A DNA stretch of 64,000 nucleotides from an uncultured Phycisphaerales bacterium (GCA_963755915.1 CAVWLP010000002.1:128001-192000); one strand, 5' to 3'; shown: positions 5,196 through 33,727, counted from the stretch's first letter. Translations and numbers: made by a program. Notes: generated by a model from the letters alone, not told the origin.

Positions 5196-6083
5196 TCATG
5201 CGAGCTTCTTTTTCGCTGGCTTATAATCGGTCAGTCTGCCGCCCAGCAACCGCTCTTCCCGTTCCAGCAATTCCACAAAATCACGCATCGTCCATTCTTT
5301 GTTGGCGATTCCGGCCCGAACGGCTGGCGTCGTCTTCAATGTCATGTGAACGCGGATGAAATTGTAGTGCATGTATTGCAGAGCAACCATGTGCTCGTGA
5401 TTCGCCAGCTTCTTTGAGAACGCATTGGTAAGGCGAGTGAATCGCCGATTGCCCATCCGCACCGTCAGATTCTGTCGCTCGATATAGCTCGTGGAAATCT
5501 TCTTCGGCTCGGGCGCGCCGCATACCGCCTCTTTCTTTATGCTGACAACTTCGGGTGGGCTGTAGCGACCGGGGCCCGACCTATCGGGGCCGTAAACTTT
5601 GATGAGCTGCGCGTAGTCAATGTCGTTTCCGAAAGCGGTGTCCACTGCGTCAAGATAGGCTTTCAATCCGTCCGTCGTAAGCTGCACGCGATTCGCCAGC
5701 CGATCCGCAACATCATTCATAAACTTGTGAGCGTACCACCCATTGCGAAGGCCCACAGTGTAGCCGATGACGAGTTTTGTGTCCGCGTCGATTGCAACCC
5801 ACGTCCAAACATCGCCGATGCCAAAGACACCTTGAAGATCGATCGGGACATTCTTTTGTTTGCAACCGACGTACTGCCAGATTTCGTCACATTGGACGCG
5901 GCGGCTACGGACATCGCAGACGGTCAAATCGTGATACTGCGCGGCCAGCGTACCAGCATCGGCCAGCAACCGGAGAACGGTAACCTTGTTCACGCCGAAC
6001 ATCCGGCAGGTTGACGCGATGCTGACGCCTTCAACCAGAGCTGTAAGAACTGCTGCCCGCGTTTCGATGTTCAGCTTTTTCAT
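5196..6083 (-). CDS. IS1-family-like DDE transposase
   Basis: N-terminal HTH; VQCDEIW, LTTDG and SYIERQNLTVR (DDE); RRFTRLTNAFSKK; YNFIRVH. Confidence 0.9.
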   Translation of the reverse strand: MKKLNIETRAAVLTALVEGVSIASTCRMFGVNKVTVLRLLADAGTLAAQYHDLTVCDVRSRRVQCDEIWQYVGCKQKNVPIDLQGVFGIGDVWTWVAIDADTKLVIGYTVGLRNGWYAHKFMNDVADRLANRVQLTTDGLKAYLDAVDTAFGNDIDYAQLIKVYGPDRSGPGRYSPPEVVSIKKEAVCGAPEPKKISTSYIERQNLTVRMGNRRFTRLTNAFSKKLANHEHMVALQYMHYNFIRVHMTLKTTPAVRAGIANKEWTMRDFVELLEREERLLGGRLTDYKPAKKKLA

Positions 6084-6090
6084 GTGAGTT

Positions 6091-6159
6091 ATTGTAATTA
6101 CGTAAACATTACAACGCAAGAACAAAATGATTGATTTCTAAGTTTTTTGTGATTACAAT
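6091..6159. promoter_or_regulatory. Divergent sigma70 promoters with repeated palindromic operator
   Basis: + strand TTGATT(6131)-17-TACAAT(6154); - strand TTGCGT(6119)-17-TACAAT(6096); TTGT(A/G)ATTAC at 6092 and 6147 overlaps both -10 boxes. Confidence 0.7.
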
Positions 6160-6165
6160 GTTGAG

Positions 6166-6378
6166 ATGAAAAAACATATAGGCAGACCGAAAAAACCTGC
6201 GGACCACTCTAAGGGAGAATTGCTCCAGGTGCGATTGGAAGCCAAAGAAAAGCAGGGTTTTTCGGATGCTGCCGCCCTGTCTGGCCTTGCCTTGTCTTCT
6301 TGGGTTCGGGAACGATTGCGTGGCATCGCGCGTCAGGAATTGGAGGGGATGGGAAAGCCGATTCCGTTTATTCCCTAG
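6166..6378 (+). CDS. Small ribbon-helix-helix-like DNA-binding protein
   Basis: GRPKK tail, beta-strand LLQVRL, then AAALSGLALSSWVRERL; homologous to 32007-32228. Confidence 0.75.
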   Translation: MKKHIGRPKKPADHSKGELLQVRLEAKEKQGFSDAAALSGLALSSWVRERLRGIARQELEGMGKPIPFIP

Positions 6379-6444
6379 GCCGTTTTTATGGGCGGATGCG
6401 GAGTGCTGTACTTCTTTTAATTGCCATGCGATAATTCGCGCATT

Positions 6445-8980
6445 ATGCCTCACAATGGCGAATGGAATCCGTTCTCGACCAAAGACTGGGCGGATGCTAT
6501 TGGCCTAGTGAACATCCCTTTGTTTGGAGGAGAGCAACCCAGAGGAATTGCCGGCGACTTCGCTGTGCTTTTGGACGGACGCCGGTCTAGCTTTGGACTT
6601 TTTCTGGCCGACGATCCTAATGAGCTGATTTACAGCAACCGCCCTCTTTCTTGGTCATGGTCCGCGAATCTGCGCCACTCGTTAATCGTTCACAAAAAAG
6701 CTGACGTTGTTATTCACCGGCGGTGGGACTCTCCTGACAAATCCACAAAATTTCCTATTCCGAGAACGTCTCTTGAGGCGGCGACGGCCTTTGCGGAAAG
6801 AATTGGGTCGGCGAAGGCTAGATCGGCATCGGACGTAATAGGCCGAATGCTTGGCGCGTTCCGCAGGGTGCGGGCCAATTTGGCCCCACAAATTATGGAT
6901 GCCGTTGTCGCGATTCGTGTCTTTAATGCCTTTCTCGTCGGGGCGGAAATGGTTCGAAAGGGCTCGTTGCGTCCTGACGAATGGCGCGGTTGTCGGACAG
7001 TCAAAGACGCTCTCGACCTGATAAAGAACAACGACGATGGCGTCGGAGTTGATAGAATCCCCTCAGACGCAGCAAGCATTGAGATCGGTGGACTTCCCGG
7101 AACATTCATTGATCCTGATCCATCCACCGGATGTGAATTAGAGCCTGATTTGCTGATACGCCATGCGTCCGGCTCGCTCTATCAGGATGCGCATTTCGAA
7201 TTGGAACGAGAAGATCAATTATCGTTGCCTGGGCTTGCCGAGAATCCCTCGTATCAACCTTCACTTCAGCGCGACGCGAGATTTACACAGCCAGCACTTG
7301 CGAGGGCTATGGTGCAACAGGCACTCAAGGCATATCGTCGAACAGAACGCGAACGAGAGATGGTTATATTGGACCCCGCATGCGGGTCGGGGGTTTTTCT
7401 TCAGCATGCCTTGCAAGAGCTGGCAGCTACAGCATGTAAACGTGCGATCAAATTAATTGGCTTTGATACTTCGGCCGTTTCCTGTGCGATTTCAGAATTC
7501 TGTTTACATCGCTCCGCAAGAGATGCGGCGTTGCGCGATTTGAGAGTTACAACCGAGATCAGCGATCAGAATGCGATGCGCAGAATGGCCAGTTGCTGAT
7601 CTGATTCTCACAAATCCACCATTTGCCGCGTGGAAAAAGATGCATGCCGACGATAGGAACATGGTGCGCGAAGTGCTTGGCAAGCTGTTTAAGGGCCATG
7701 CCGACAAGGCAATGGCCTTCATCTGGAAGGCTGCGAATTCAACGGCGATGGGTGGAACCTTTGCTTCGGTTCTTCCGAGCCCGCTACTAGAATCAAACGC
7801 CGGGGAACGGTGGCGGAAAGCGGTTATGGAACTGGCGAACATGGCGCTTGTCGGGCGGTTTCGTGGATACAGTTTCTTTCAAAACGCGATGGTTGAACCC
7901 GCTTTTGTTGTAATGCAGCGGAAGATTTCCGAAGACGATTTACCAAGGCCGGTGCACGTTCTCCTCTCCGATGAGGGAGCGGAAGATGAATCGTTGCGTG
8001 CAATTCGCCGGAACCGCCCAGACGGAGAACATGCGGACGATGACTCGTTCAGTGTGTTTACAGCTCCCCCATCCATAATAACATCCGTAAGTTGGATGCC
8101 CCGGTCGAAAAAGATGATGGAATTGATCCGCCGCCTTAAAGATAGCGAAATTGCGACCGTTGGAGAATTGTTTTCGATCGACCAAGGCGTCCTAACGGGC
8201 CTGAATAGCGCTTTTATTCTTTCCAAGGCTGAATTTCTCGGTCTGCCCGAAGATGAGCGCGAATACTTTATGCCCGCAATTGGATCTTCCACAATTAGGG
8301 GCGGCCAAATTCTTGAAGAGGAATATGTCTTTTATCCCTACTTGAAACCAGAGGACAACGATCCAAATCCGAAGACGCGAATAACCACCGTTGATGAACT
8401 GCGCGAAATGGTTCCGAATTATTTTGATGGTTGGCTACAGCCTTTCGAAGATCGCCTCTTAAAGCGAGAAGGATTCGGACAAAACAATTGGTGGCTTCTC
8501 ACGCGTGAACGAAGATGGCCCAAAGTACCAAAAATCGTCACGGCATATTTCGGCGAGACGGGAAGTTTCAGCTTTGATGTGGAAGGCCGTTTCGTCGTGG
8601 TTCAGGGTTATATCTGGCGATGGAATTCCGCCCAAGACAATGGGGATGAGGAGGCGGAAGAAATAGACTTCAATCGTAGTGGACTGCCGTGGGCTTATGT
8701 GGCGATGCTTAACAGTTCGGTATTCGAGACAATGTTGTCCCAATATTGCCCAAGGGTTCAAGGGGGACAATTTAATCTTTCTGATAGGTTTGTATCTAAT
8801 GCGTTTCTGCCAGACCTTACTGACGAAAGTCGCGTTGTCCCGGACGACGTGAAGGAATTGTCGCGCATTGGATTGAATTTATTCACGAATCGCTTAGTTG
8901 ATCTCAACCGGCTCAATTTAATCGTGGCTCACGTTTATGGAATTACGCTGGCGGACTTAGCAAGCGCAGCGAGGAGCTAG
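6445..8980 (+). CDS. N6-adenine DNA methyltransferase (gamma-type) with target-recognition domain, frameshifted near 7580
   Basis: Motif I ILDPACGSGVFL, motif IV LTNPPF, C-terminal YVAMLNS...RVQGGQFNL region like TaqI/Eco57I TRDs; two overlapping ORFs. Confidence 0.85.
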
Positions 8981-8982
8981 AC

Positions 8983-9663
8983 ATGGCAGGCGTTTCGCGC
9001 GGAGAAATTAACGCGATGCACGAGCGCCTATCGCGGAGCTTTGGGTCAAACCTTAGAAATGGATGCGATATTGCTCCGATGCCAGAATCCAGGCAGGGCT
9101 GGCATAGGAGAGCGCTTATGGCAGATATAGAATTCTTTCTTTGGAGCAGAAACCGAACACAACAATATGGGCTCCGGTCCGGGGGTCGTGGACAATGCCC
9201 AATCGTTTCCGCGATAGAAACCAGCGACGACTGGGATGTTGGAGAATTCTCGTGGGTAGCGTGGCGGGAAATATGGATCAGGAAGAAAGACGACGAATTT
9301 GATTTGAAAGATGCCGCCTTCACGTTCTTTTGGGGAAGAGAAACCGGATTAGGCCCCATTGACGATCAGTTGTTCCGCGTAGAGTGGCCGCAAAAGGGAT
9401 ACGGGGGCGACAGGTTGGGGCGACCTCATTGGCAAGTAGATTGGCCGCTCGCCGACCTGGAGCGATCTGTATCTGGTATTCATCTCGCGATGGCCGGATG
9501 GAATCAAACCGATGGCCGAAATTTGGATGGTGAACCCCACATATCCGAACACTTTATTCGGTATGCCACGGATGTAATAAGCGACATTGAAATTTGGGCG
9601 TCTCGTACGATGGCCTATTCGTTCGACCAGATCGCTCGATTCTTTCCGAGAAATTGGGGATAG
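8983..9663 (+). CDS. Hypothetical protein coupled to the methyltransferase
   Basis: Starts 2 nt after the MTase stop with an AGGAG RBS; FRVEW...PHWQ...IHLAM segments. Confidence 0.7.
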   Translation: MAGVSRGEINAMHERLSRSFGSNLRNGCDIAPMPESRQGWHRRALMADIEFFLWSRNRTQQYGLRSGGRGQCPIVSAIETSDDWDVGEFSWVAWREIWIRKKDDEFDLKDAAFTFFWGRETGLGPIDDQLFRVEWPQKGYGGDRLGRPHWQVDWPLADLERSVSGIHLAMAGWNQTDGRNLDGEPHISEHFIRYATDVISDIEIWASRTMAYSFDQIARFFPRNWG

Positions 9664-9670
9664 AGAAAAA

Positions 9671-9883
9671 TTAGGACATCATCCGTTGTCCCGCTTCCGC
9701 CCCCGCAAAGAACGCCGCCCGCAACAACGTCATCCCCCGTTCATCCACTTTTTGAATCCCCTTCGCCCACGCCTTCCACGCGGCCTCCAGGCCGGGCGGT
9801 AGCTGCTCCTCATGGCGCTTGATTGTCTCGTCAACGATCCGCTTGGCGGTTACGGCGGGGTCGGGGAGCTTGGCCTTTTTCAT
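9671..9883 (-). CDS. Small hypothetical protein reading inward from the right TIR
   Basis: 70-aa helical ORF (PDPAVTAKRIVDET); TACAAT 6 nt upstream of the ATG. Confidence 0.6.
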   Translation of the reverse strand: MKKAKLPDPAVTAKRIVDETIKRHEEQLPPGLEAAWKAWAKGIQKVDERGMTLLRAAFFAGAEAGQRMMS

Positions 9884-10023
9884 GGGCAAATTGTATGCCA
9901 AAGTGGCCCCGGCGGCTAAACCCTGAGTATACTACTACCGAATGTCCAGTTTTGTCTTGATTGCCCCAAACCAAAAAAACATCGCCGCCCCAAAAAACCA
10001 CTTCGCGCCACCCCCCAAATTCT

Positions 10024-12273
10024 TCACCCCTCCGCAACCTTCTGCACCACCCCCTGCAACCTCTGAAAATTGATCGGCTTGGTGAGATGATCCGTAAACC
10101 CCGCCTCGCGGGTTTTGAGAATGTCTTCTTCCATTCCAAACCCCGTCAGCGCCACGGCCGGAAAATCGTTTTTACCTCGCTGGCGCAATTGCTGAATCAA
10201 ATCGATCCCCGTTCCATCCGGAAGCCCGATGTCGCTGAGCAGCAGATCGAACGGCTCCTCCGCGGCCACCAGCGCCGACGCCACCGAATCGGCCGTCCGC
10301 ACCTGGTGCCCAAGCCGCTCCAGCAGCCGGCTCATCACCCGCGAGGTGTCGTCGTGATCTTCCACCAGCAAAATCCTCAGCGGCCGCGTCGACCCCGCAG
10401 CGGGCCTGGGCGCCGCGCCCGGCTTTGAAGAGGGGATCGACGGCATCACCGGCGCGGAAGTTGTCGGCATCGAGATCGTGAACGTCGAGCCCTTCCCCAG
10501 CCCCTCGCTTTTAGCCGCGATGGTTCCGCCCTGGGCCTGCACGAACGCCTTGCTCAGGCTCAGCCCCAGTCCCAGCCCGCCATACTGCCGAACGATCTCT
10601 GCCGATCCCTGCTCGAACGGCTGGAAAATCCGCTTGATCGTCTCGGGCGTCATGCCGGTGCCGGTGTCGGTGATGTTGATCTCGACCCGGCCGCTCGCCG
10701 GGTTGAGGCACTTGATCTCGATTTTGCCGCCGGCCGGCGTGAACTTGGCGGCGTTTTTGAGGATGTTCCAGAAAACCTGCTGAAGCCGCCCGGCATCCGC
10801 CATCACAAATCGCGATTCGGCGTTGAGGTGCATCTCCAGCACGATCGACTTGGCGTTCAGATCGGACCGGTAGATCCGCGTCACCCCATCGAGCATGGCA
10901 TGAACGTCGACGGCTTCCATGTGCAGCGCCAGCTTACCACGCACGATGCGGGTAAGATCAAGCAGATCGTCGATCAATCGCGCTTCCAGCTCCGCACATC
11001 GCCGGAGCGTGCCTAGGTCCTCGCGAAACTCGACCGGAAACGACGGGTTCTGCGTCCAGGAGGTGAGCGTGACGACGACAGGCGTGAGCGGCGTGCGCAG
11101 CTCGTGCGAAAGAACGGCCAGAAAATTGTCCTTGGCCACGTTGGCGCTCTCGGCCTCTTCCTTGGCGTGCTGGAGGTTCTGCTCGAACTGTTTTCGCTCG
11201 GTGAAATCGCGGAAGACCAGCACAACGCCGTGAATGATCCCATCGTCCCCGCGGATCGGCGCCCCGCTGTCGTCGATGGGCAATTCGGAGCCGTCCTTGC
11301 GGATCAGCACCGTATGATTCGCCAATCCCTGCACCACACCGGTCTCCAGAACCTTTTCGACGGGATTAGGCACCGGCTTATGCGTCGTTTCGTTGACGAT
11401 CCGGAAAATCACCCCGCACGGTTTCCCGCCCGCTTCCGCGGAGGTCCATCCCGTGAGCTGCTCGGCGACGGCGTTCATGAAAACGATATTTCCTTTCGCG
11501 TCGGTGACGATCACCCCGTCGCCGATACTCGCCAGCGTTACTGCGGTCAGGCGCTGCTGGCGGGCCAAGTCATCGACCACAACTTCTCGCCGGCGCATTT
11601 CCTGCTGGATCTGGTTAAACGCCCAGGCGAGGAATATAAGGTTGATCCCGGCGGTAAAGGCAAATGCGAGTGTATGGATGTCGGTAACCCGCTCGGTCTT
11701 TTGCTGGACAGCGAGCTGCCGCTGCTCCCCCTGGTCGATCATGTGGGTGATCAGCGTGCGGATGTCGTCCATGAACTGCTTGCCGACGTTGGATTTGACG
11801 GTTGCCAATGCCGCCGCGGATCCTTCGGGACCCCGCTGCTGGTCGATGGTGAGTTTCAACTCCGCCATTTTTTCATGGCAAAGCTCCTGAAGCCGACTCA
11901 CGTCATCCTTATCCAGCAACCCTTCATTGACCCGCGCATCGAGATCGGCCAATTGCCCGTCCACCCGGCCGACTGCCGTGGTATAGGGCGCCAGATACGT
12001 CGAATTCCCCGTCAGGAGATAACCCCGCTGGCCGGTTTCAGCATCTTTTAAGGTGGAGAGCACTACGTTGAGGGCATCGACCGTGTTATGGACCCTCAGC
12101 AAAGACCGCCCATATTCAATCCGCACCTGGCCGATCCAGTAAGTGCCCGCCACGGTTGCGACCAGAAGCAGGGCCATGGCCCAGAAAAGGGTTTGGACGC
12201 TGAGCGTGGGGCGGATTCGCCGTTGTCGTACGAAGCCGTCGATCGTGAAATTTTCAGATTTTTCCATGCCCAT
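10024..12273 (-). CDS. Hybrid sensor histidine kinase (CHASE3-PAS-HisKA-HATPase-REC)
   Basis: DAETGQRGYLLTG, PAS, SHELRTPL, NAAKFT, GLGLGL, receiver LLLSDIGLPD. Confidence 0.95.
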   Translation of the reverse strand: MGMEKSENFTIDGFVRQRRIRPTLSVQTLFWAMALLLVATVAGTYWIGQVRIEYGRSLLRVHNTVDALNVVLSTLKDAETGQRGYLLTGNSTYLAPYTTAVGRVDGQLADLDARVNEGLLDKDDVSRLQELCHEKMAELKLTIDQQRGPEGSAAALATVKSNVGKQFMDDIRTLITHMIDQGEQRQLAVQQKTERVTDIHTLAFAFTAGINLIFLAWAFNQIQQEMRRREVVVDDLARQQRLTAVTLASIGDGVIVTDAKGNIVFMNAVAEQLTGWTSAEAGGKPCGVIFRIVNETTHKPVPNPVEKVLETGVVQGLANHTVLIRKDGSELPIDDSGAPIRGDDGIIHGVVLVFRDFTERKQFEQNLQHAKEEAESANVAKDNFLAVLSHELRTPLTPVVVTLTSWTQNPSFPVEFREDLGTLRRCAELEARLIDDLLDLTRIVRGKLALHMEAVDVHAMLDGVTRIYRSDLNAKSIVLEMHLNAESRFVMADAGRLQQVFWNILKNAAKFTPAGGKIEIKCLNPASGRVEINITDTGTGMTPETIKRIFQPFEQGSAEIVRQYGGLGLGLSLSKAFVQAQGGTIAAKSEGLGKGSTFTISMPTTSAPVMPSIPSSKPGAAPRPAAGSTRPLRILLVEDHDDTSRVMSRLLERLGHQVRTADSVASALVAAEEPFDLLLSDIGLPDGTGIDLIQQLRQRGKNDFPAVALTGFGMEEDILKTREAGFTDHLTKPINFQRLQGVVQKVAEG

Positions 12274-12363
12274 CGAAGTTGCGATAGTGATTTTCCGTTC
12301 CCCGTCAGTTATCGTATTTGGTTGGACTAATCCACGTCAAATGAGCAAGATACATAGAGCATA

Positions 12364-13191
12364 ATGCGACTGAGAACGACGATTTTTGATCCGGTCCAGC
12401 ACAGCCTACCTGTGAAGCTGGATTTGCCGGCGACCCAAAGCCCCCCGGCAGAGCCGACCACGGTTTTCCAGCAGCTCAAGTGTCTCATCATCGTTCCCGC
12501 CTTCAACGAAAGCCAATCGGTCGCGAAACTGGTGAACCGCCTGAATCGCGCCCTGCCGGATTGCCATATTCTTGTGATCGACGACGGCTCGACCGACGGC
12601 ACCGCCCGGCAAATCCCCCCCAGCGCCACGGTGGTGAGCCTGCCCTTTAACCTGGGCATCGGTGGGGCGATGCAGACGGGATATCGCTACGCGGCCTGCC
12701 ACGGCTACGACGTCGCCATCCAGGTCGACGGCGACGGGCAGCATCGGCCGTGCGAGGTGGAAAAACTGGTCCAGGCCCTGGTCAGCGGCCCGGCCGACCT
12801 GGTCGTCGGCTCGCGATTCCTGGCGGCGCCAAGTCTCGTCCCCTCCTTCACCCGCATGACGGGCATTCGGGTCCTTAGCGCCTGGATCCGCATTCTCACC
12901 GGTCTGAAAATCACCGACTGCACCAGCGGCTTCCGGGCAGCCAACCGCAAGGTCATTCTCGCCTACGCCCACTGGTATCCGGAAGATTATCCGGAGCCGG
13001 AGGTCGTGCTGCTGCTTCACCGCTCGAAATTCAAGGTTGTGGAAGTCGCCACGCGCATGCGCCGGCGAATGTACGGAAAGAGCAGCATCAGCCTTCTTCG
13101 CGGTCTGTATTATGTTTTGAAAGTCAGCTTCTGCCTCTTCCTCGACATGATCCGCCAGCCCTGGCCGAGCGGGAAAATTGACGTGCAGTGA
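12364..13191 (+). CDS. Glycosyltransferase family 2
   Basis: IIVPAFNE, IDDGSTD, VDGDGQH, DCTSGFRA. Confidence 0.9.
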   Translation: MRLRTTIFDPVQHSLPVKLDLPATQSPPAEPTTVFQQLKCLIIVPAFNESQSVAKLVNRLNRALPDCHILVIDDGSTDGTARQIPPSATVVSLPFNLGIGGAMQTGYRYAACHGYDVAIQVDGDGQHRPCEVEKLVQALVSGPADLVVGSRFLAAPSLVPSFTRMTGIRVLSAWIRILTGLKITDCTSGFRAANRKVILAYAHWYPEDYPEPEVVLLLHRSKFKVVEVATRMRRRMYGKSSISLLRGLYYVLKVSFCLFLDMIRQPWPSGKIDVQ

Positions 13192-13196
13192 CAAAT

Positions 13197-13222
13197 ATCC
13201 GTGAAATCCGTGTAATCCGTGG
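13197..13222. repeat. Short 9-mer tandem repeat
   Basis: Three copies of ATCCGTG at 9-nt spacing, intergenic. Confidence 0.6.
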
Positions 13223-13252
13223 TTCTCTTCTTTTTTTCCTGTTTGAGCCTGC

Positions 13253-13639
13253 ATGGCCGCGAGAATCATCCTCATCTGTTTCGGAGCGACGGTGATGATC
13301 GTCGCCGTTCGGCGGATGCGTTCCTATCGGCTCAAGGAACGCCACATGATTCTTTTCCTGCTCACCGGGCTGCCATTTTTGCTCCTGGCGGTCTGGCCGT
13401 CGGCGATCGGCTGGGTCGGGCACAAGCTGGGCGTTCAATATCAAACTGTCTCCCTCCTGTGCGTGGCGGCATTTTTTATCCTGGTGATTTTCGAGCTGCT
13501 CACCATCGTCAGCCTCCAGGACCGTAAGATTGCCACGCTGGCGCAGATCGTCGGCATCCTGATGGAAAAGCACGGCATGGGCGACCGCCCCACCGGCGAG
13601 GGCAAGCCGGCCGAGTCCTCCGATCCGGCGCACCGATGA
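13253..13639 (+). CDS. DUF2304-like membrane protein
   Basis: Three TM segments and KIATLAQIVGI, located between GT2 genes. Confidence 0.75.
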   Translation: MAARIILICFGATVMIVAVRRMRSYRLKERHMILFLLTGLPFLLLAVWPSAIGWVGHKLGVQYQTVSLLCVAAFFILVIFELLTIVSLQDRKIATLAQIVGILMEKHGMGDRPTGEGKPAESSDPAHR

Positions 13640-13640
13640 T

Positions 13641-14694
13641 ATGACACGCCTCGCGATCCTGATCGCATGCTTCAACGGCCGCAAATACATCGCCGATTGC
13701 CTGCGCTCGCTTCAGAAGGCCGCCACTGCCGACGCTGAAATCTCCATCATCGTCATCGACAACGCCAGCACCGACGGCAGCGCCGATTTCGTCGCGGCGG
13801 AATTCCCAAATGTCGAGCTGATTCGCCTCCCTGACAACCGCGGCTTCGCGGGCGGCATCAACGCCGGCTGGCGACATGCGCGAGAAATTCTCCAATCTCA
13901 AGTACGTCGCCCTCATCAACCAGGACGTCACCGTCGCCCCCAACTGGCTCGCCCCTCTTCTTGCCCATCTCGATTCGAACCCTTCCACGGCCGCCGTCCA
14001 ACCCAAGGTGCTTCTCGCCGACCCTCCCAACCGCTTCAACACCGCCGGCAATCGCAGCCACTATCTCGGGTTCGGCCTCGTCACTGCCTACGGGCAGATC
14101 GACGACGGCTCCCACGACCAGATCTGCGAAATCGACTTCCCCTCCGGCGCCGCCGCCGTCATCCGCGCCGAAGCGCTGGGCAACGCCGACATCTTCGACG
14201 ATCTCTACTTCCTCTACCTCGAAGACGCCGAACTCGGCTGGAAACTCCGCCAGTTCGGCTTGAAAATCCACTTTATCCCCGCATCCGTCGTCTGGCACCA
14301 GTACGAATACCGCCATGATTACAAATTCTATTTCTACCTCGAGCGCAACCGCTGGTATCTGCTGGCGACGTATTTTAAGCTCCCCACGCTGCTGATTCTT
14401 CTGCCCGCGATCATCGCCATGGAATTCGGCCAGCTCTATTTCGCCTGGCGCAACGGCGTGCTAGGCCAGAAGCTGGCCGCCTATCGCTTCTTCCTGTGCC
14501 GAAAGAACCTGGCAAGGCTGCTGGAACATCGCCGCCGCGCTCAGGATCGCCGGCGGATCGACGACCGCCAGTTCGTCCGCACTTTCGTATCGGAAATCGA
14601 TCTCCCCGAATTGCGCAGCACAATCCTTCGCCGGATCGGCAACCCCCTGCTACGGACCTATTGGCACATCGTGCGTCCGCTCATCATCTGGTAA
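13641..14694 (+). CDS. Glycosyltransferase family 2, frameshifted near 13885
   Basis: IDNASTD and NRGFAGG in the first frame; LINQD, FLYLEDAE and YLERNR in the second. Confidence 0.85.
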
Positions 14695-16281: not shown

Positions 16282-16450
16282 TCAGTTGAATTTCTACTAT
16301 ATCGCAAAATAGTAAATTCCGAACCGCCGAATTTTCTCACAGTGAGATAGGGGCGTCCCGCCCCACGGCCTCCAGCCTATGCGGGGTACCGCTCCTCGCC
16401 TCCGGCTGCGGCTTGGCAATCGGCAATCGGCATTGTTAATGTCTCTCCCA

Positions 16451-17650: not shown

Positions 17651-17656
17651 CGCCCG

Positions 17657-20171: not shown

Positions 20172-20222
20172 ATGGATCGGCGGAATTTTCGATGGTGTCA
20201 TTGTCTGAGATTCCGGCCACCT

Positions 20223-22396: not shown

Positions 22397-22430
22397 GCAC
22401 TCGGCCGCTAAACTCCCGCTAACCGGAGGA

Positions 22431-23630: not shown

Positions 23631-23956
23631 TGCCCTGGGTCAGCCTGTGCGATTTCGATGAAGTCCCCGAAGGCGCCGGCAAATACGTCGAGATCGACGG
23701 CTTCTCCCTGGCCGTCTTCCGCCACCAGGGAAATCCATATGTGATGGACAGCACCTGCCCCCACGCCGGCCACGACATCTCCGCCGGCGCAATAGAAAAC
23801 GCCTGCGCCGTCTGCCCCTACCACGGCTGGATGTTCCGCCTCACCGACGGCCAAATGCCGGACGCCCCCGGCGTCGCCGTAACCGTCTACAAAACCCGCC
23901 TCCTCCCCCGACCCGATCAACCGACGCTCGTGCAGGCCGATTTGCCGATGCCGTAG
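23630..23956 (+). CDS. Rieske 2Fe-2S ferredoxin
   Basis: CPH...CPYHGW. Confidence 0.9.
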   Translation: MPWVSLCDFDEVPEGAGKYVEIDGFSLAVFRHQGNPYVMDSTCPHAGHDISAGAIENACAVCPYHGWMFRLTDGQMPDAPGVAVTVYKTRLLPRPDQPTLVQADLPMP

Positions 23957-23959
23957 GCT

Positions 23960-24146
23960 TAGAATGACGAAATCAGAAACCAGAATGACGAATCAAATCC
24001 GGAGGCGCGGACGCCTCCGGGGCGTACTCGCCGATTACGGCCCGGAGCCGTCCGCGGCTCCTCCGAATGACGAATGAAGCAACGGCCATTCGTCATTCGG
24101 ATTTCGGATTTGATTCGGAATTCTGATTTCTGGTTTCGGGTTTCCT
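23960..24146. repeat. Inverted heptamer repeat tract with a REPIN-like insertion
   Basis: GAATGAC/GAAACCA units facing GTCATTC/TTTCTGG units; 61-bp palindromic insert at 24001-24061. Confidence 0.75.
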
Positions 24147-24158
24147 GACGTTAAAATC

Positions 24159-24905
24159 ATGCCCATGCCTGCCTCCCAAATCCAGGACCTCTGCGAGCTC
24201 GGCCAGGAGCAGCTTTCCCTGATGCAGTACCTCGCCGCCGAGAAAACCCTCGCCGCCGCCGAGCATCTCGCCTGGACCGCCCGCGATTTCGATTCCCTCT
24301 CGCGCCTCTACATGCCCCTTCAGGAATCTCGCCGCCAGCGCCGCCAGCGCTGCGGCGAAGGAACCGTCCAACTCGACCTGCTTTCCTCCGGCGCAACCGA
24401 ACCCCTCGACGGCAACGCCATCGCCTCCACGATCCTTCGCGGCCAGCTTCTCATCGCCGGCTGGGCTTCCATCGAACCGGCGCTTCAGGCTCGCCGAGCG
24501 CAAGCGCAGGCCGAGCTCTATCTCGACGTCTTCCTGGCCGCCGTCTATCCCGCCGGCGAAGGCCGGCTGGTCGCCATTTTTCCGACGGCCGACGTCGCAT
24601 TGCCTCCGGCCGAGGCAACGTCGATCGACGCCCTCATCCGCCGGCTTCCGGCGCACAGCATTGTCATGTCCGATAATCAGCTTCCCAAAGGGCAAAGGCC
24701 CGGCTCGCCGGATACGTATGCCGAGGTGATGGACCTCTGGGAACGGCTGCACGCCCCGTTCCTGGGCGCCGCCGACGCGACGCCGGACCCCATTCGCCGC
24801 ATCGATGCCTATCGCAAAACCATTGCCGTCGATTATGCTTGTGAGCTCGCCCATCAGAGGATTTCCGACACCGCGCGAAAACTCTGCGCAAAGGGGACTG
24901 CATGA
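24159..24905 (+). CDS. Hypothetical protein
   Basis: 248-aa ORF with host-like codon usage; ATGA overlap with the next gene. Confidence 0.7.
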   Translation: MPMPASQIQDLCELGQEQLSLMQYLAAEKTLAAAEHLAWTARDFDSLSRLYMPLQESRRQRRQRCGEGTVQLDLLSSGATEPLDGNAIASTILRGQLLIAGWASIEPALQARRAQAQAELYLDVFLAAVYPAGEGRLVAIFPTADVALPPAEATSIDALIRRLPAHSIVMSDNQLPKGQRPGSPDTYAEVMDLWERLHAPFLGAADATPDPIRRIDAYRKTIAVDYACELAHQRISDTARKLCAKGTA

Positions 24906-25756
24906 GCTATTACGGTTATGGTTACGGCTACGGACGCGCCCCCGGTTTCCACCTCCGCCACATCATTGGGATCGCGGTCATTCTCTTCGGCATCTTCTCC
25001 TACTTCAGCCACGAAACGGTCAACCCCGTCACCGGCGAGAAGCAGCACGTCTCGATGACTGCCGACCAGGAGATCGCCCTTGGCCTGCAATCGGCCCCGC
25101 AGATGATCGGCGAAATGGGAGGCGAGATTACCCCGCCCGATCCCAAGGCCCAGGCCGTCGAGCACGTCGGCCAGACGATCGCCTCGCAGCGCGAGCCGCG
25201 CGAGAGCGGGTATCCGTTTCAGTATCACCTGCTGGCCGACCAGCAGACGATCAACGCCTTTGCCCTGCCGGGCGGGCAGATCTTCATCACCCGCGGCCTC
25301 TACGACAAGCTGCAGGACGAAGCCGAACTTGCCGGCATTCTCGGCCACGAAACCGGGCACGTCGTCGAGCGCCACGTCGCCCAGCAGATCGAGCAGAGCC
25401 GCCTCGGCCAATCCATCGTCTGGGGCTCAGCCATCTACGCCAGCGGGAATCACAACGGCCTATCGACATGGGCCATCGCGGACATCGCCGACCAGATGAT
25501 CCAGCTTCGCTTCAGCCGCAAGGACGAATCGCAGGCCGACCAGTGCGGGCTACAGTACATGACCGAAGCCGGCTACGACCCGCGGGCGATGATCGACGTG
25601 ATGAACATCCTGAAAAGCCTGGGCGCCGACTCCGAGCCGGAATTTCTCGAAACCCACCCCGACCCTGGGAACCGGATCCAGGCGATCCAGGATTGGATGC
25701 AGGACCATCCGTTCCTGGCGCAGCAGCTTACGCGCGGCGATCAGTTGCCGCATTAG
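24902..25756 (+). CDS. M48 family metallopeptidase
   Basis: NAFALPGG, HETGH, FSRKDESQAD, FLETHP. Confidence 0.92.
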   Translation: MSYYGYGYGYGRAPGFHLRHIIGIAVILFGIFSYFSHETVNPVTGEKQHVSMTADQEIALGLQSAPQMIGEMGGEITPPDPKAQAVEHVGQTIASQREPRESGYPFQYHLLADQQTINAFALPGGQIFITRGLYDKLQDEAELAGILGHETGHVVERHVAQQIEQSRLGQSIVWGSAIYASGNHNGLSTWAIADIADQMIQLRFSRKDESQADQCGLQYMTEAGYDPRAMIDVMNILKSLGADSEPEFLETHPDPGNRIQAIQDWMQDHPFLAQQLTRGDQLPH

Positions 25757-25759
25757 CGA

Positions 25760-28249
<2,490 letters not shown>

Positions 28250-28328
28250 CCATGTGCTCCAGTCATGCGTAAAAACAGAAGTTCACCCGCCTTTGCGCCA
28301 AAGGTGATTCCGGGGCGCTGGAGGTGAG

Positions 28329-30196
28329 ATGTTACAGCCCAGCTATTATCTCGAAATCCCGTGCGAATTCTATGCTTGCAGGGGTGAAAAGGTCCACCGG
28401 GGATGGATTGGCGAAGGTGCGTTTTTGCCTCGATTTTTCGTGCTTTTTGCGGTGATCTTTGGGGTTTTTACCGGATGCTGGGCCAGGACGGTTTCATCGA
28501 CGACGCAGCCCTCGGCGGATCAGCGAATTGACGCCTGGATCGAGCAGTTAAATTCCGACAACGCGGATGACCGCAAGGCCGCGGCAAATGCGCTCATCAA
28601 CATGCGGGAAGCGTCGCGGCCGGCGATTCTGAAGCTCATCAAGTCCGCCGATCCGGGGCTGCGAAAACAAGCGCAGGACATCCTTTTGGCGCTGCCGTGG
28701 TATACGGCGACCGATCCGCCCAAGGTGAAGCAACTGCTCCTGAATTACGGAGCACCCGACATCGAAACGCGGCGGGTGTCGATCGGGCAGCTTGCAGGGT
28801 TCGATGACCAGGCGGGACTGGGGGCGCTCACCCGGCTGCTTACCGAAGACCCAAGCCCCGCGGTGCAGTGGACGATCGTCGAATGCCTGCGCGAGCAGGG
28901 GTGGCTGGATGGGTTTCAAAGCATAACCCCCGCGCCCGACGATTCGCGGCAACTGGCGGTTTGCGGTTACGCGCGGCTTTCCAGCGATGTCGCGGGGGCG
29001 ATGGACTATCTTTCCCAATGCGCGGAGCTGGAATTCGCCGAGCCGACCGACGATGACGGGGAGTTTGATTTTGTTATCCGGTTCCTTGCCGATGCTGAAT
29101 GCCAGCAGAAGCGATATGACGAGGCGGCCGATTGGCGCCGCAAAGAAATTCAGCGCGGAAGCCTGGTAGAACAATCATCAGGAATTCCCCAGGCGATGCT
29201 GGAATTGTTCGCGCTTCAGGCAAACTTTGGGCCGCTGAAGGGCCTGGAGGGCGACATCCGCACCGCCGGCGCCGACATTCAAAAGCCGATGCTTCAGTAC
29301 ACGCTGGCGGAGATGTATGCCCGCACGGGGCAGACAGCCAAGGCCCAGGCAGCGCAGAGCGCTGCGTTCGCGGGATCCACCAATCGGATGCAGCGATATT
29401 ACGTGGGCGAATTTCTCTACGAGCATGGGTGGGACGTTTTCGCCGAGGGCGAGCTTCGCGCCTATCTGAAGCGGAACCCGGCGGATGTGGGCAATGAGCT
29501 GGATTTTCAGCAGCTCACCGATGCCAATGTTCACCTGGCGCTGGGCGCGATCGCGGTGCGGCGGGATGACGACGAAACCGCTGCCAAGGAAAAGGAGCAG
29601 GCGATGCTGCTCATGGGCAACGGCAGCGACCTGCTGATGACCGACCACCTGGGGCATCAGTGGAAGCTGACGCCGGACAAGCTTCCGCAGCTTTGGGGGG
29701 AAATTTACTGGCGCTGATCTGCGCGGCAGTCGCGGGCAACGATCAGAAGGAAATCAATCGGCGGATGGAGCAGCTTCTGGGAACCAAGCCGACCGACACC
29801 GATATCGCCATCGATATCGTTCCCCTCCTGCGGAGCATGGGGCGAACGAGCGACGCCGATTTGCTCTTTGGATGGAGCTACGATTCTGTCATGCGGGATC
29901 TGGATTCGGGCCCCAATGATCCCGAAAAGCTGAACGAAGCGGCTTGGCTTTGTGCCAAATGCGATCGCCATCTTCCCGAAGCCCGCGCCTGGGCGGAGAA
30001 GGCGGTCGCGCTTGCGCCAAACGATGCGGCCATTATCGATACTCTGGCGGAGGTCTATTTCCACCTTGGGCGGCCGGATTTGGCGGCGACGACAGAAGCA
30101 AAAGCGCTGAGCTTTCAGCCGGGCGATCCTTATATGAGTAAGCAGCTTGCCAAGTATCAGGACGCGGCAAAGAGCGCCACAACTCGACCCAACTGA
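28329..30196 (+). CDS. HEAT/TPR repeat protein, frameshifted near 29710
   Basis: Signal-like N-terminus, HEAT-like helices, LNEAAW...IIDTLAEVYF TPR. Confidence 0.7.
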
Positions 30197-30218
30197 TCCG
30201 CGGCGTATGATTGAGGGA

Positions 30219-31013
30219 ATGTTTCGGCTGACCCGCGAGGTTCGATTTGGGATTAATCCGGAAGAGGCCGCGCCGGCTGCAGGCACTCCTTCCAATGGGT
30301 TCGCGGGATATCCGCCGCTGATCGGGATCGGGCATTATTTCACGCTGGAAGTGACGGTTGTAGGCAATCCGTCGCCGGAGACCGGCTGCATCCTGAACAT
30401 CAAGGAAATCGATCAGAAGGTGCGCGAGCTGGCGATTCCGACGGCGGTCGCCTTTGTCCGGCGCGGGCGGCTCGCGGGCGGGGCGATGCTGATCACTTGC
30501 ATCTACGAGAGTCTGAAAGACGCGTGGCCGGAGGCGAAGCTGCATCATCTTCGGCTGGCGCTCAGTCCGTATCTAACGCTGTCCCTGTTTGCCCAGGAGT
30601 TTCCCATGGTTCGGCTTAGCCAGAAGTTCGAGTTTTCGGCGTCGCATCGGCTTCATAATTCGGCGCTTTCGGAGGAGGAAAACCGCCGGCAGTTTGGGAA
30701 GTGCAACAACCCGCATGGGCATGGGCATAACTATGTCTTGCAGGTGACGCTGGCGGGAATGCCGGATGGGAATGGGTTTGTGGTGGATATTCCGAAGTTT
30801 GAGGAGGTTGTGGCGGCGACGGTGATCGAGCCGCTGGATCATCGGTATCTGAATGTGGAGATTGCGGAATTCTCCGATCTGATTCCCACCGTTGAGAATA
30901 TTGCGATGGTGATTTTTAAGATGCTGAAGCCGAAGCTGGATGCGCTCGGGGCGAAATTGGCGGGGGTGACGCTTTGGGAGACGACGAAGACTTGGTGTGA
31001 ATATATGGAGTGA
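30219..31013 (+). CDS. queD: 6-carboxytetrahydropterin synthase, tandem-domain form
   Basis: FSASHRL, KCNNPHGHGHNY, LDHRYLN, PTVENIA, LWET; degenerate N-terminal copy. Confidence 0.85.
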   Translation: MFRLTREVRFGINPEEAAPAAGTPSNGFAGYPPLIGIGHYFTLEVTVVGNPSPETGCILNIKEIDQKVRELAIPTAVAFVRRGRLAGGAMLITCIYESLKDAWPEAKLHHLRLALSPYLTLSLFAQEFPMVRLSQKFEFSASHRLHNSALSEEENRRQFGKCNNPHGHGHNYVLQVTLAGMPDGNGFVVDIPKFEEVVAATVIEPLDHRYLNVEIAEFSDLIPTVENIAMVIFKMLKPKLDALGAKLAGVTLWETTKTWCEYME

Positions 31014-31150
31014 TTATTTCACTGTGGGGGGGGCGGCAAAAAGATTTTTATACGCGGGGCATCGGGTACAAAAGGTAACAGTCCGCAAGCTTTGCACAAC
31101 GGGAGGGTTTTGCACAACGCGACGAATCCTGCACAACGGGACAAGTTCTT

Positions 31151-31999
31151 CTATGGGCTTGGTTTATAGTTCAATGGATTCGGCGCGGAATCTTCTGGCC
31201 TTGGCTTCGCCCCCACGATTATGAGGACGGTCCCCTTTGGGCACGGGACTTCCAATTTCAGAGACATGATTATGCCGCCGGTCGCCATTTCCATTCCCGC
31301 GTCTGCGAATGCGTCGCCAAGCTGTTTCGGAACATCCCACCACTGGCCGGATTTGTGCATCTCCATAAGGTCTTCTGGACCCATTTGTACGGCAACCCCG
31401 GAATGGATTTGTATCAGTTGGTCGCTTGGAGCGAGGCCCAGATATGCGCTGCCGGACCAGCCACAATCGCCCCGAAGAAAATAAGCGATCTGCTGAGCAT
31501 AGTTTCCGGCTTCATTGTCCCCAAATCCGATCTGTACCACCACGAACTTCTGCGTCCCGATTTTCTGAATCAAGGGGATCAGTTTTATTTTTTGGGCTTC
31601 CGTCAATTCTCTTGGGGCAAAAAGCTGCGCGAATGCCTGCCTGTATCCAGCGTCCCCGGACACTTGCTGAACACCGCCGCTATCGACCGCCGGTGCCGCG
31701 ACGGGGGGCGATGAAAAATGCAAATACAGCAAAATGGACACGGTCCAGAGCGCGACCGTAAGGACCCCTGCAAAAACCAGAATCATCCAAGCGTTACCGA
31801 TAAAATAGTAAACGAATGCGGCAAAAAATGTGGCAATGGCGAGCGAAATGCGTTTGACAAGCCTGTGCTTAAATACGCGAAGAGCGCCCACGGTGCGCTT
31901 AACATTAGGGTCATTGAGAATGCGTTTTACTTCATCGCTGGAACGGTCGTAGGGTTTGTTTTGTTGGGCGTCCTGATTCTGTTCTGGCTCCATCGGCAT
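31151..31999 (-). CDS. Hypothetical 2-TM membrane protein (IS cargo)
   Basis: 282-aa ORF starting 7 nt after the RHH gene stop; two hydrophobic helices near the N-terminus. Confidence 0.7.
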   Translation of the reverse strand: MPMEPEQNQDAQQNKPYDRSSDEVKRILNDPNVKRTVGALRVFKHRLVKRISLAIATFFAAFVYYFIGNAWMILVFAGVLTVALWTVSILLYLHFSSPPVAAPAVDSGGVQQVSGDAGYRQAFAQLFAPRELTEAQKIKLIPLIQKIGTQKFVVVQIGFGDNEAGNYAQQIAYFLRGDCGWSGSAYLGLAPSDQLIQIHSGVAVQMGPEDLMEMHKSGQWWDVPKQLGDAFADAGMEMATGGIIMSLKLEVPCPKGTVLIIVGAKPRPEDSAPNPLNYKPSP

Positions 32000-32006
32000 C
32001 CCTAAA

Positions 32007-32228
32007 TTACGCCGTTAACTTATCCAGATATGCCACCGGCAATCCTAAATCCTCCAATTCCCTTTTCGCGTCCCGCCGCAACCGCTGTCTTATCCAGCCG
32101 GATAGCGGCAATCCGGCCGCATCGGCGGCGGCACGGAAGGTATCCTTCTCGGATTTCTCGACTCGCATTTCGATCCATTCGGTTTTCACGTCATCCGGGT
32201 TTTTCTTCGGTCTTCCAGCTTTTCTCAT
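32007..32228 (-). CDS. Small ribbon-helix-helix-like DNA-binding protein
   Basis: GRPKK, WIEMRV, AAADAAGLPLSGWIRQRL; homologous to 6166-6378. Confidence 0.75.
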   Translation of the reverse strand: MRKAGRPKKNPDDVKTEWIEMRVEKSEKDTFRAAADAAGLPLSGWIRQRLRRDAKRELEDLGLPVAYLDKLTA

Positions 32229-32234
32229 GCCAAT

Positions 32235-32304
32235 ATGATACGGACGAAAATCATATCGGTCAAGTAATTTTATTCTTGACAGGGACGATTATTGTCCGTA
32301 TACT
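32235..32304. promoter_or_regulatory. Divergent sigma70 promoters with inverted operator boxes
   Basis: + strand TTGACA(32276)-17-TATACT(32299); - strand TTGACC(32263)-17-TATCAT(32240); ATACGGAC (32238) and GTCCGTAT (32294) overlap both -10 boxes. Confidence 0.8.
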
Positions 32305-32311
32305 ATTCAAC

Positions 32312-33727
32312 ATGGAAACAGCACTTTATAACGGTCAAAAAGTAACAGACGGCATCAATGAGGGCGTTGAAGCCCGGAAACAGCGCGGCCTTGAAATCGC
32401 CGCCTTGGCCAAGATTGACCGAAAGAACGGCATTTATCTTGTCCCGTCCGTCACCAGTCCACGGCATCAGAAATATCAGGTTCAATACAGCAAAGAGAAT
32501 CCGACTTGCACCTGTGAGGACTTCCACCAGCGCGGATGCCGTTGCAAGCATATTTATGCGGTCGAATTCGTCCGCCGCCGTGAATTGAATCCCGATGGCA
32601 GCACCACGGTTACCGAATTGGTAATCATTTCCAAAAAGCGAAAGACGTACCCGCAGAACTGGCCCGCGTACAACGCCGCGCAGACGACCGAAAAGGCAGA
32701 ATTCCAGCGGCTGCTGGCCGAAGCCTGCCGGGACTTGGTGACACCGGCGCAAGAGGGACGTGGCCAGCGTCGTATGCCGCTGTCGGACGCGGTGTTTTGT
32801 GCCGTGTTCAAGATTTATTCCACGATGAGCGCCCGCCGCTTCACCAGCGATCTTTGCGACGCGCAGGCCAAGGGACACATTCAAAAAGTCCCGCACTTCA
32901 ATAGCGTCCTGAAGGCGCTGGAGAGTGCCGAATTATTCCCGATTCTCGTGGATATGATTCAGCGGAGTGGTGCGGTGCTCGCGTCGGTTGAGTCTCAATT
33001 TGCGGTGGACTCGGCTTTGCCTTTTTAAGTTAACCTAGGTAATTTGGCGATCGATTTTATGGGCAGCCGCCGGATTTTGTGGGCAGGGGCGATTTAAAAG
33101 GCAAAGTCGGTGGACTCGACGGGCTTCGCATTCTGCCGATTCACGCGCTGGTACGACATCAAATACAATAAATTCACTTCGGAGCAGCAGTGGATCAAGG
33201 CCCATATCTGCACCGGGACAAAGACGAACGTGGTGACCGCGATTGAACTTAAGGACCGGGACACTGCCGACGCGACCCAACTCCCGGCGCTGGTGGAATC
33301 AACCGCCAAGAATTTCAACATGGTGGAAGTGTCCGCTGACAAAGGCTATTCGGGGCTGGAATCTCACAACGCGATTGCCGCCACCGGGGCGAAGCCCTTC
33401 ATCATGTTCAAAGACAATGCGACTGGTGGCGTCGGTGGATTGTTCCGCAAAATGTTCCACTTCTTCCAGTTCAACCGCGACGAATTCCTTACCCACTATC
33501 ACCGTCGGTCAAATGTTGAATCGACCGTCAGTATGATTAAGGCCAAATTCGGGGACGCGGTGCGGTCGAAAACCGAAGTTGCCGCCCGGAACGAAGTGTT
33601 GGCCAAGGTTCTCTGCCATAACATTTGCTGCCTGATAAGCGCAATGCACGAGCTTGGGATTGAGCCGGTGTTCGGCTTAGGCTCGGCTGCACAACAGAAC
33701 GTAAACCTGCACAACGAAAAGTCTTAA
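32312..33727 (+). pseudogene. SWIM zinc-finger DDE transposase interrupted by a MITE
   Basis: CTCEDF...CKHIYAV (SWIM); FAVDS|TGF, SADKGY, YHRRSNVES (IS4/IS5-type DDE); removing the insert restores the frame. Confidence 0.9.
33013..33108. mobile_element. 96-bp MITE
   Basis: TIRs GGCTTTGCCTTTT and GACTTTGCCTTTT (12/13); 9-bp TSD GGTGGACTC at 33004 and 33109. Confidence 0.9.

Follow-up and report, generated by a model that had tools for sequence, protein, structure and literature searches.

Divergently encoded regulators in transposons

Transposons in which a small regulatory gene lies beside a two-way promoter are known from several groups. In IS605 elements, the ribbon-helix-helix (RHH) protein Arc binds a region of two divergent promoters and represses the transposon genes, and Arc homologues, according to the authors, adjoin other transposases as well (preprint by Moon, Zedaveinyte, Wiegand & Sternberg, bioRxiv 10.64898/2026.09.24.754181, October 2026). 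In the CRISPR-associated transposons (CAST) of type V-K, cas12k and the gene of its regulator CvkR were found experimentally to be both leaderless, across a spacer of 82 nucleotides (nt); in other CASTs, Arc-like RHH genes for proteins of 53-72 amino acids (aa) replace CvkR, and repeated acquisition of the regulators has been suggested (PMC9938897). In Tn3, the divergent promoters of tnpA and tnpR lie in res and are repressed by TnpR, the control region holds toxin-antitoxin modules, some with RHH antitoxins, and a burst of expression in a naive cell has been proposed (PMC7157771). Here we analyze a stretch of 64,000 nt from an uncultured Phycisphaerales bacterium (GCA_963755915.1, CAVWLP010000002.1:128001-192000; "the window" below), which contains two insertion sequences (ISs) of unrelated families: element 1 (4739..9939), with an IS1-like transposase, and element 2 (31088..33749), with a SWIM zinc-finger DDE (SWIM-DDE) transposase of IS5-like type. 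In both, as an earlier note on this sequence had observed, gene calls and coordinates place the transposase head-to-head with a gene for an RHH protein of 70-73 aa. The two-way promoter and the RHH gene form a portable unit of about 300 bp, without cargo, and this cassette has been exchanged repeatedly between the two transposase families.

The likeness to the known systems is one of arrangement: as with IS605 Arc and CAST Arc_1/Arc_2, a small RHH protein is encoded inside a transposon beside a bidirectional promoter. The Arc sites of IS605 lie over two predicted divergent promoters; however, the hosts here are DDE transposons (IS1, IS5-like) rather than HUH/TnpB elements, the RHH gene is divergent from the transposase gene whereas arc lies beside tnpA in many IS605 elements, and exchange between families, leaderless geometry and variable cargo are not described for Arc in the accessible part of the preprint. 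Type V-K CAST, too, has its regulator gene in divergent orientation to one of the core genes of transposition, with 82 nt between start codons, but the host is Tn7-like, the regulated gene is cas12k/tnsB, the characterized regulator is of MerR type, and no sharp cassette running from open reading frame (ORF) to ORF and common to unrelated transposases is shown in the available sections (PMC9938897). Tn3 likewise has divergent transposase and regulator genes with both promoters in the intergenic site; TnpR is in addition a resolvase that binds res, unlike the bare RHH protein without recombinase role in the small IS-like units studied here.

The principle of a transposon-encoded divergent regulator is, in short, already known, and the earlier note's remark that it knew of no description has to be qualified, since the design is in print for type V-K CAST and IS605 Arc. 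In the literature outside subscription journals, ISfinder/TnPedia and the supplements of the Arc preprint, we found no description of such an IS1/IS5-like cassette, of its ORF-to-ORF boundaries, of repeated swapping between families, or of operators sorting by RHH strand. Classical IS1 encodes its own transposase repressor, InsA, a zinc-finger/helix-turn-helix (HTH) protein encoded upstream of the transposase in the same direction and fused to it by frameshifting. Element 1 resembles IS1 in its GGnnnTG-type ends, 8-bp duplications and putative self-encoded repressor; in contrast to the InsA arrangement, it has a single-ORF transposase and a divergent RHH regulator. Passenger genes within the inverted repeats are a feature that element 1 shares with the passenger-carrying "transporter ISs".

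Exchange of the promoter-RHH cassette between transposase families

A profile built from five RHH proteins of this genome was used to search 101 genomes and detected 59 places in 23 of them. By taxonomic group, hits came from 11 of the 12 genomes in the genus, 21 of the 60 in the family, and one of the 40 that represent other families of the class. The set examined in detail has 47 loci: seven in this genome and, from 19 relatives, the 40 best among 49 places, after nine with E-values of 8e-7 or worse were dropped; the unpublished G014 was left out. An IS1-like transposase is divergent from the RHH gene at 16 of the 47 loci (nine with spacers of 80-85 nt, two remnants, and five, of a distant branch, with 195-209 nt), and a SWIM-DDE transposase faces it at another 16 (ten full length, six N-terminal remnants), so that RHH homologues are indeed enriched beside divergent transposases (32/47), the check that the earlier note had proposed. 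At the remaining 15 loci tblastn detects neither transposase; three of them carry SWIM-type end repeats on the cargo side, three show apparent SWIM N-terminal remnants by eye, and two (L066, L067) face the methyltransferase-like ORFs described below.

Exchange is seen most directly when the IS1-like locus L042 is compared with the SWIM-DDE loci L043, L044 and L045. They are 82-85% identical at the nucleotide level over 292-295 nt, and the shared block begins precisely at the start codon of the transposase and finishes with the stop codon of the RHH gene, the sequence beyond being unrelated at either end. Element ends stay with their own transposase (GGTAGTGG... in IS1-like and GGCTTTGCACAACGG in SWIM-DDE elements), and for this reason it is the central cassette alone that moves. 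In a maximum-likelihood tree of the RHH proteins (41 rows; built from 67 columns, with many forks unresolved), the IS1/SWIM labels require at least 9 changes among the 32 labelled rows; the well-supported (starred) branches alone force 4-5 changes, and clustering of the labels hardly exceeds that after shuffling. The shared block and the label changes bear out the earlier proposal that a portable unit has moved between IS families, and indicate that it did so repeatedly. The same proposal had counted cargo as part of the switch, coupling transposition to cargo expression; this part is not upheld, since homology ends at the RHH stop codon and cargo is often convergent.

In the window, the control spacers measure 82 nt in element 1 (6084..6165) and 83 nt in element 2 (32229..32311) from ATG to ATG, the lengths first reported. 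Each holds two sigma70-type promoters, legible directly in the sequence, with 17-bp spacing and a -10 box 6-7 nt from the ATG, again as first described. In element 1, the transposase promoter (minus strand; -35 box 6114-6119, -10 box 6091-6096) reads TTGCGT-17-TACAAT-7-ATG, and the RHH1 promoter (plus strand; -35 box 6131-6136, -10 box 6154-6159) reads TTGATT-17-TACAAT-6-ATG. Their counterparts in element 2 are TTGACA-17-TATACT-7-ATG for the transposase (plus strand, 32276..32304) and TTGACC-17-TATCAT-6-ATG for RHH2 (minus strand, 32263..32235). A consensus promoter scan recovers three of the four, against 0.3-0.5 sites in shuffled 500-nt regions; the transposase-1 promoter matches 8 of 12 consensus positions, below the scan threshold. 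The spacing of about 82 nt is accounted for by the needs of back-to-back promoters, i.e., 7+6+17+6 nt, then about 10-12, then 6+17+6+6. Transcription from sigma70 promoters usually starts about 7 nt after the -10 box, which here would fall on the ATG, and a distance of 6-7 nt leaves no room for a ribosome-binding site; we therefore infer from the sequence that both mRNAs are leaderless or nearly so.

Both spacers show dyad symmetry (6091-6119/6131-6159 in spacer 1, 32232-32264/32275-32307 in spacer 2), and the element-specific palindromes claimed earlier over both -10 boxes are present. The operator-like sites GTAATTAC/GTGATTAC overlap the two -10 boxes of spacer 1, which are abutted by GT(A/G)ATTAC, and GTCCGTAT abuts and covers those of spacer 2. 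TGTRATTAC is found twice in the window, both times in spacer 1 (0.18 expected). Within element 2, GTCCGTAY is confined to spacer 2; the other window copies, at 30565 and 60563, lie outside both elements. Repetition of the RHH sites at the element ends was also considered and is unsupported, there being no full copies elsewhere in either element.

The likeness of the two elements might in principle be a coincidence of ordinary neighbouring genes and promoters: short sigma70-like matches and short palindromes are common, and the 8-mer GTCCGTAY is not rare by itself (4 in the window against 1.7 expected). This explanation is refuted for practical purposes, as the same architecture recurs at those 32 of 47 loci in 20 genomes, and in other phyla too, and as a block of 82-85% identity with sharp boundaries is hardly the work of chance.

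Among the 27 spacers with both start codons assigned, 17 are 80-85 nt long, five 100-105 and five 195-209, counts that are slightly biased because the common geometry guided the choice of ATG among in-frame alternatives at six loci (L039, L043, L045, L056, L069 and C2:4183023). The best RHH-side promoter ends 6-8 nt before the ATG in 26 of the 27; of the 17 short spacers, 15 have a transposase-side promoter that ends 6-7 nt before the start codon, and the two exceptions are decayed copies. With the promoters written 5' to 3' from the -35 box to the ATG, each element proves to have the same 10-12 nt next to the -10 box on both sides, and the stretch between the hexamers is more similar within elements (identity 0.63, 27 elements) than between them (0.44, 702 comparisons).

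The operator-like sequence sorts by the type of the RHH β-strand, not by transposase family. The sequence abutting the -10 box is GTCCGTAC for strand EY(I/L)E.R, TTGGCTAT for VD.RIP, TATTACTAC for VDLRIPV, TGTGGCTAC for (I/V)LRIRL, and GT(A/G)ATTAC for the LLQVRL strand of RHH1; a relative of RHH1 in another class (L102, strand NLLQVRV) has the same site, TTGTAAT..ACATTAC. Each strand type occurs with both transposase families, which is true of all three RHH subtypes, and in this genome alone three operator types are spread over IS1-like and SWIM-DDE elements; the IS1-like copy at C2:4183023, for instance, shares the GTCCGTAC operator type with element 2. Sorting of operators by RHH subtype is what an autoregulatory switch predicts, and the comparison of sites supports this prediction.

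The distant IS1 branch (L054, L055, L057, L062, L064) keeps the RHH gene and the two-way promoter, and has a conserved structured leader of about 120 nt before the transposase, with a GC-rich hairpin and a stem that would cover the ribosome-binding site and the ATG. The promoter core of L054 together with the first part of the leader (138 nt; hairpin included, ribosome-binding-site stem excluded) folds with z = -4.9, to which the dyad-symmetric promoter core contributes much. Rfam gave no credible match in the long leader of this branch.

Role of the RHH protein

RHH1 (6166..6378, plus strand, 70 aa) and RHH2 (32007..32228, minus strand, 73 aa) are clearly alike, with 30 of 67 residues identical (E 2e-20), a computed value that replaces an earlier hand count of 32/70. 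Matches to the Pfam NikA-like family are just short of the cut-off of 27 bits for RHH2 (26.1) and lower for RHH1 (17.2), and NCBIfam RelB/MbpA matches are far below their cut-offs. In the AlphaFold2 (AF2) model of RHH1 (pLDDT 85), an extended segment is followed by helices 26-39 and 43-62, the strand-helix-helix topology, spanning about 45 residues, of the RHH (MetJ/Arc/CopG) superfamily. The Foldseek list for this model is headed by RHH proteins only (Arc, KacA, TacA, AtaR, NikA, CopG and others), with E-values of 0.2-1, as expected because the fold is so small. The homodimer model of RHH1 scores 0.75 against 0.00 for the best control and passes the mark, which 20 out of 30 solved pairs and 1 out of 23 single chains reach; the pass may reflect likeness to solved structures, because RHH dimers are a textbook fold and well represented among them. 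Between dimer runs, 98% or more of the contacts agree; the pLDDT of the partner is 79 or higher, and the two strands pair along residues 19-23, so that RHH1 is predicted to be an intertwined homodimer with an antiparallel two-stranded sheet. Relatives of RHH2 form 36 metagenome clusters, named hypothetical or DUF1778 family. The shortest members of the RHH family have 53-57 aa. The N-terminal motif (G/A)RP.K, invariant in the family, is AT-hook-like, and one may speculate that it reaches the T-rich linker.

We propose, at a probability of roughly 0.7, that the RHH gene and the two-way promoter are a shared control cassette in which the RHH protein is an autorepressor of both promoters. An RHH dimer, probably as a dimer of dimers, is predicted to bind the subtype-specific sequence that abuts and overlaps each -10 box, and we infer that its binding at both boxes would silence the RHH and transposase genes at the same time. 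The outcome would be a copy-number-dependent self-limitation of transposition. In trans, the protein would also reach all elements that share its operator type, regardless of their transposase family.

A wider scan, with one genome per species and covering the long RHH subtype only, found 30 loci, including close relatives in Tepidisphaeraceae and Phycisphaerales (Planctomycetota). Sixteen loci are from other lineages; an IS1-like transposase lies beside the RHH gene in 11 of them (Acidobacteriaceae, Fimbriimonadales, Planctomycetaceae, Gemmataceae, two proteobacterial metagenome-assembled genomes, Nitrospinota, and Prosthecobacter) and a SWIM-DDE transposase in none, and the same promoter layout is kept in most. 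A search of 400 other Planctomycetota genomes for the N-terminal half of the SWIM-DDE transposase gave no match at E 1e-10 or better. The pairing of RHH with IS1 thus looks older and wider than that with SWIM-DDE transposases, which probably acquired the cassette inside this bacterial family, on more than one occasion. A long-subtype RHH gene in Patescibacteria (L096) lies beside a short fragment with a weak match to IS1595-type transposases (E 0.0012, below cut-off), a lead to a possible third transposase family.

Several observations weigh against the proposed role of the cassette, in addition to the slight bias in the spacer counts. From the transposase side, IS1-like elements have the RHH gene at 11 of 22 loci; the other 11 have different divergent genes instead, so the RHH protein is dispensable for the IS1-like backbone. 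Two RHH genes face ORFs with a DPPY methyltransferase motif, recognized by eye (L066, L067), and a third faces a DNA methyltransferase confirmed by Pfam (L102), which suggests that the RHH family may be a general small regulator. Starts led by Shine-Dalgarno sequences are found in the Nitrospinota copy (L104) and before one proteobacterial transposase (that of L095), so leaderless expression is not intrinsic to the cassette. Tandem 5-bp subsites are hinted at, but weakly, with a second copy 11 bp upstream in 7-10 of the 49 distinct promoters and in 0-3 of them at other offsets. Lastly, the top structural matches of RHH1 include the antitoxins KacA, TacA and AtaR, and 5 of 61 cargo ORFs are toxin- or antitoxin-like: two GNAT (L039, L047), a Fic (L060), a weak YafQ (L058) and a HicB (L069).

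These last two points, as well as the DUF1778 name given by one source to close relatives, would fit the RHH gene being simply the first cargo gene, an antitoxin or a cargo-specific controller (e.g., a GNAT/Fic partner or a methyltransferase regulator) that does not regulate the transposase and adjoins it merely because the cargo slot is there. Methyltransferase-facing homologues and the different genes found in the same slot of RHH-less IS1-like elements could be read in this way too, as could the DNA methyltransferases (C5, D12, N6_N4) and GmrSD (twice) that a Pfam scan of the 61 ORFs, some of which lie past undefinable element ends and are in part host genes, matched along with a ClpP-like protease. 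Yet the same scan left 40 ORFs without a family, no conserved cognate toxin gene was found directly downstream of RHH among these ORFs, and cargo differs among near-identical RHHs. The cassette is swapped without cargo, the homology stopping at the RHH stop codon. Cargo does follow the RHH gene directly in both window elements, as first noted, but this does not hold in general: it varies, either orientation is seen, and it is transcribed convergently to RHH in, e.g., L037, L042, L043, L046 and the C2:4397596 copy. RHH proteins as short as 53-57 aa have little space for a tail that binds a toxin, and operator-like sequence lies over the transposase -10 box as well, for which a regulator of cargo only would have no need. 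On this balance we regard a mere cargo gene as unlikely.

The slot has other occupants as well. Two identical IS1-like copies without RHH (G000:C2:1476169-1478500 and C2:2156026-2158400; L122, L150, L152) have in the regulator slot a weak Gp49/HigB-like ORF and then a frameshifted XRE-type HTH ORF, which resemble a toxin-antitoxin pair; other RHH-less copies carry there an XRE-type protein, recognized by eye, or genes of no assigned family.

A role of the RHH protein as an architectural or accessory factor of transposition (in transpososome assembly, target choice or directionality), with the spacer sequences as its loading sites, has in its favor the tight linkage to the SWIM-DDE transposase, which has the RHH gene at 10 of 11 loci in the family (8 of 9 without G014). 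RHH proteins are accessory DNA-binding factors in relaxosomes, and NikA and MbpA are among the weak matches. The candidate sites, however, lie over -10 boxes in the middle of the element, without full copies at other places of either element; one and the same RHH type is paired with two transposases whose ends are unrelated; and the non-autonomous copies L043, L045 and L056 keep the RHH gene after loss of the transposase. We consider such a role highly improbable.

L043 and L045 come from two species of the genus, in which a transposase-deleted SWIM-type element lies beside what is apparently the same 664-aa ORF; on crude ORF calls the cargo appears to differ, which would imply that it was replaced in place.

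Returning to autorepression, a further and more tentative extension is that the cassettes are exchangeable "immunity" specificities, each of which would repress in trans the resident elements with the same operator across families, so that selection for escape from resident copies would drive both the diversification of β-strand/operator pairs and the repeated transfer of entire cassettes from one IS family to another. This may be likened to the mosaic immunity regions of temperate phages.

Anatomy and significance of the two elements

The ends of both elements, as first delimited, are confirmed by inverted repeats and target duplications. Element 1 is a complete cargo-carrying IS with an IS1-family backbone. 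Its 15-bp terminal inverted repeats (4739..4753, GGTAGTGGTATACTC; 9925..9939, GAGTATACTACTACC) are flanked by an 8-bp target-site duplication on the left (4731..4738, GAGTGTCC) and a right copy that is one base off (9940..9947, GAATGTCC). IS1-family elements have terminal inverted repeats starting GGnnnTG and target duplications of 8-9 bp, and the ends of element 1 agree, reading GGTAGTG...; L038, L052, L053 and the C2:1253824 copy likewise have terminal repeats of this type on either side. Duplications of 8 bp flank all five complete IS1-like elements (2.4-5.2 kb), three perfectly and two with one mismatch. The transposase (5196..6083, minus strand) matches Pfam DDE_Tnp_IS1 with 27.9 bits (cut-off 24.1; E 3.3e-6) and NCBIfam transpos_IS1 with 57.9 bits, below the equivalog cut-off of 100, and so is a distant IS1 member. 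It is one ORF of 295 aa, lacking the two-frame InsA/InsAB' layout with programmed frameshift, and this fits the single-ORF subgroups of IS1.

Downstream of the RHH1 gene is an N6-adenine DNA methyltransferase of Eco57I/type IIG-like kind (plus strand), split by a frameshift into 6421..7599 and 7571..8980; the break near 7571-7599 probably means an inactive gene or an assembly error. This methyltransferase is the sole match that PADLOC gave among 50 cargo and backbone proteins. Together with the methyltransferase-facing RHH genes, its presence hints at a link of RHH to methylase control. A further cargo ORF of 226 aa (8983..9663, plus strand) matches no known family.

At the non-transposase end, a small inward-reading ORF (9671..9883, minus strand; 70 aa, start codon at 9883) shows a TACAAT-6-ATG layout of its own, 24 nt inside the terminal repeat. 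Homologues in this position are present in the IS1-like L038, L042, L049, L052 and L053 and in the C2:3545133 and C2:1253824 copies; Pfam and NCBIfam assign the ORF to no family, and a protein-atlas look-up gave unnamed clusters only (<0.9).

Downstream of the transposase lies an ORF of 115 aa (4788..5135, minus strand) with a weak match to the DZR zinc ribbon, an optional extra cargo gene that is present in element 1 and, judged by size, L053, and missing from L038, L052 and the C2:1253824 copy. A 54-nt stretch at its end (CxxCGYDLRATPDRCPECG) is 82-94% identical at about 20 other loci, and near the C2:3545133 element (G000:C2:3541800-3543000) there is a short array made up, in alternation, of such zinc-ribbon ORFs and C-terminal pieces of IS1-like transposases.

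Element 2 is likewise a complete cargo-carrying IS, with an IS5-like backbone that includes a SWIM zinc finger. The same 9-bp sequence, CAGTCCGCA, flanks it on the left (31079..31087, within repeated promoter-like sequence) and on the right (33750..33758). The uninterrupted target sequence ...GGTAACAGTCCGCAACAA... is found at ten other places in the genome, and these paralogous sites, acting as empty sites, fix the ends of the element. What the element interrupts is a conserved repeat of about 60 nt (GGGCATCGGGTACAAAAGGTAACAGTCCGCAACAA..TGGG; 31030-31088 and 33750-33800), found at no fewer than ten other loci in G000 C2 and C3 and promoter-like by eye (GTAACA-17-TAAGAT). Just downstream of this repeat in the window is a gene for a sigma factor of extracytoplasmic function (ECF) type (33840..34430), the promoter of which may have been split by the insertion. 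The cargo-side end (31088..31150) has the terminal repeat AGCTTTGCACAACGG and two more TGCACAACG subterminal repeats, and the terminal repeat on the transposase side (33735..33749) is CCGGTGTGCAAGGTC. On the SWIM-DDE side, L069, too, is flanked by duplications, of 7-8 bp. The cargo is a predicted membrane protein of 282 aa (31151..31999, minus strand), for which Pfam and PADLOC gave no known family and the protein-atlas look-up unnamed clusters only (<0.9).

The transposase of element 2 (32312..33727, plus strand) combines the N-terminal SWIM zinc finger with a DDE_Tnp_1 domain (Pfam E 2.9e-19) and scores 98.5 bits with NCBIfam transpos_IS5_2, below the cut-off of 140. The IS903-like group of IS5 is characterized by 9-bp duplications and GGC... 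ends; the duplication of element 2 measures 9 bp, and the ends of relatives read GGCTTTGCACAACGG, but the SWIM zinc finger is not known as a feature of IS903. The gene is inactivated by a miniature inverted-repeat transposable element (MITE)-like insertion of 95 bp (33014..33108; ends GCTTTGCC.../...GGCAAAGTC) with a 10-bp duplication, GGTGGACTCG, at 33004 and 33109, and two stop codons break the reading frame. As the ends of the miniature element resemble the terminal repeats of the SWIM-DDE family, the insertion into the transposase gene may stem from a derivative of that very family; this genome has no second copy of the miniature element.

Elements of these two families move defence-type genes (DNA methyltransferases, GmrSD, Fic, GNAT) in the poorly studied soil Planctomycetota and Acidobacteriota. 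If the RHH protein represses both promoters, self-restraint of transposons would come as a plug-in unit of about 300 bp, movable between transposases with unrelated chemistry and ends. Of practical use would be a naturally occurring collection of small repressors and their matching 82-bp two-way leaderless promoters, in four or more distinct specificities. The modular unit would add a new layer to the evolution of insertion sequences, with possible cross-regulation between IS families that reside in one cell.

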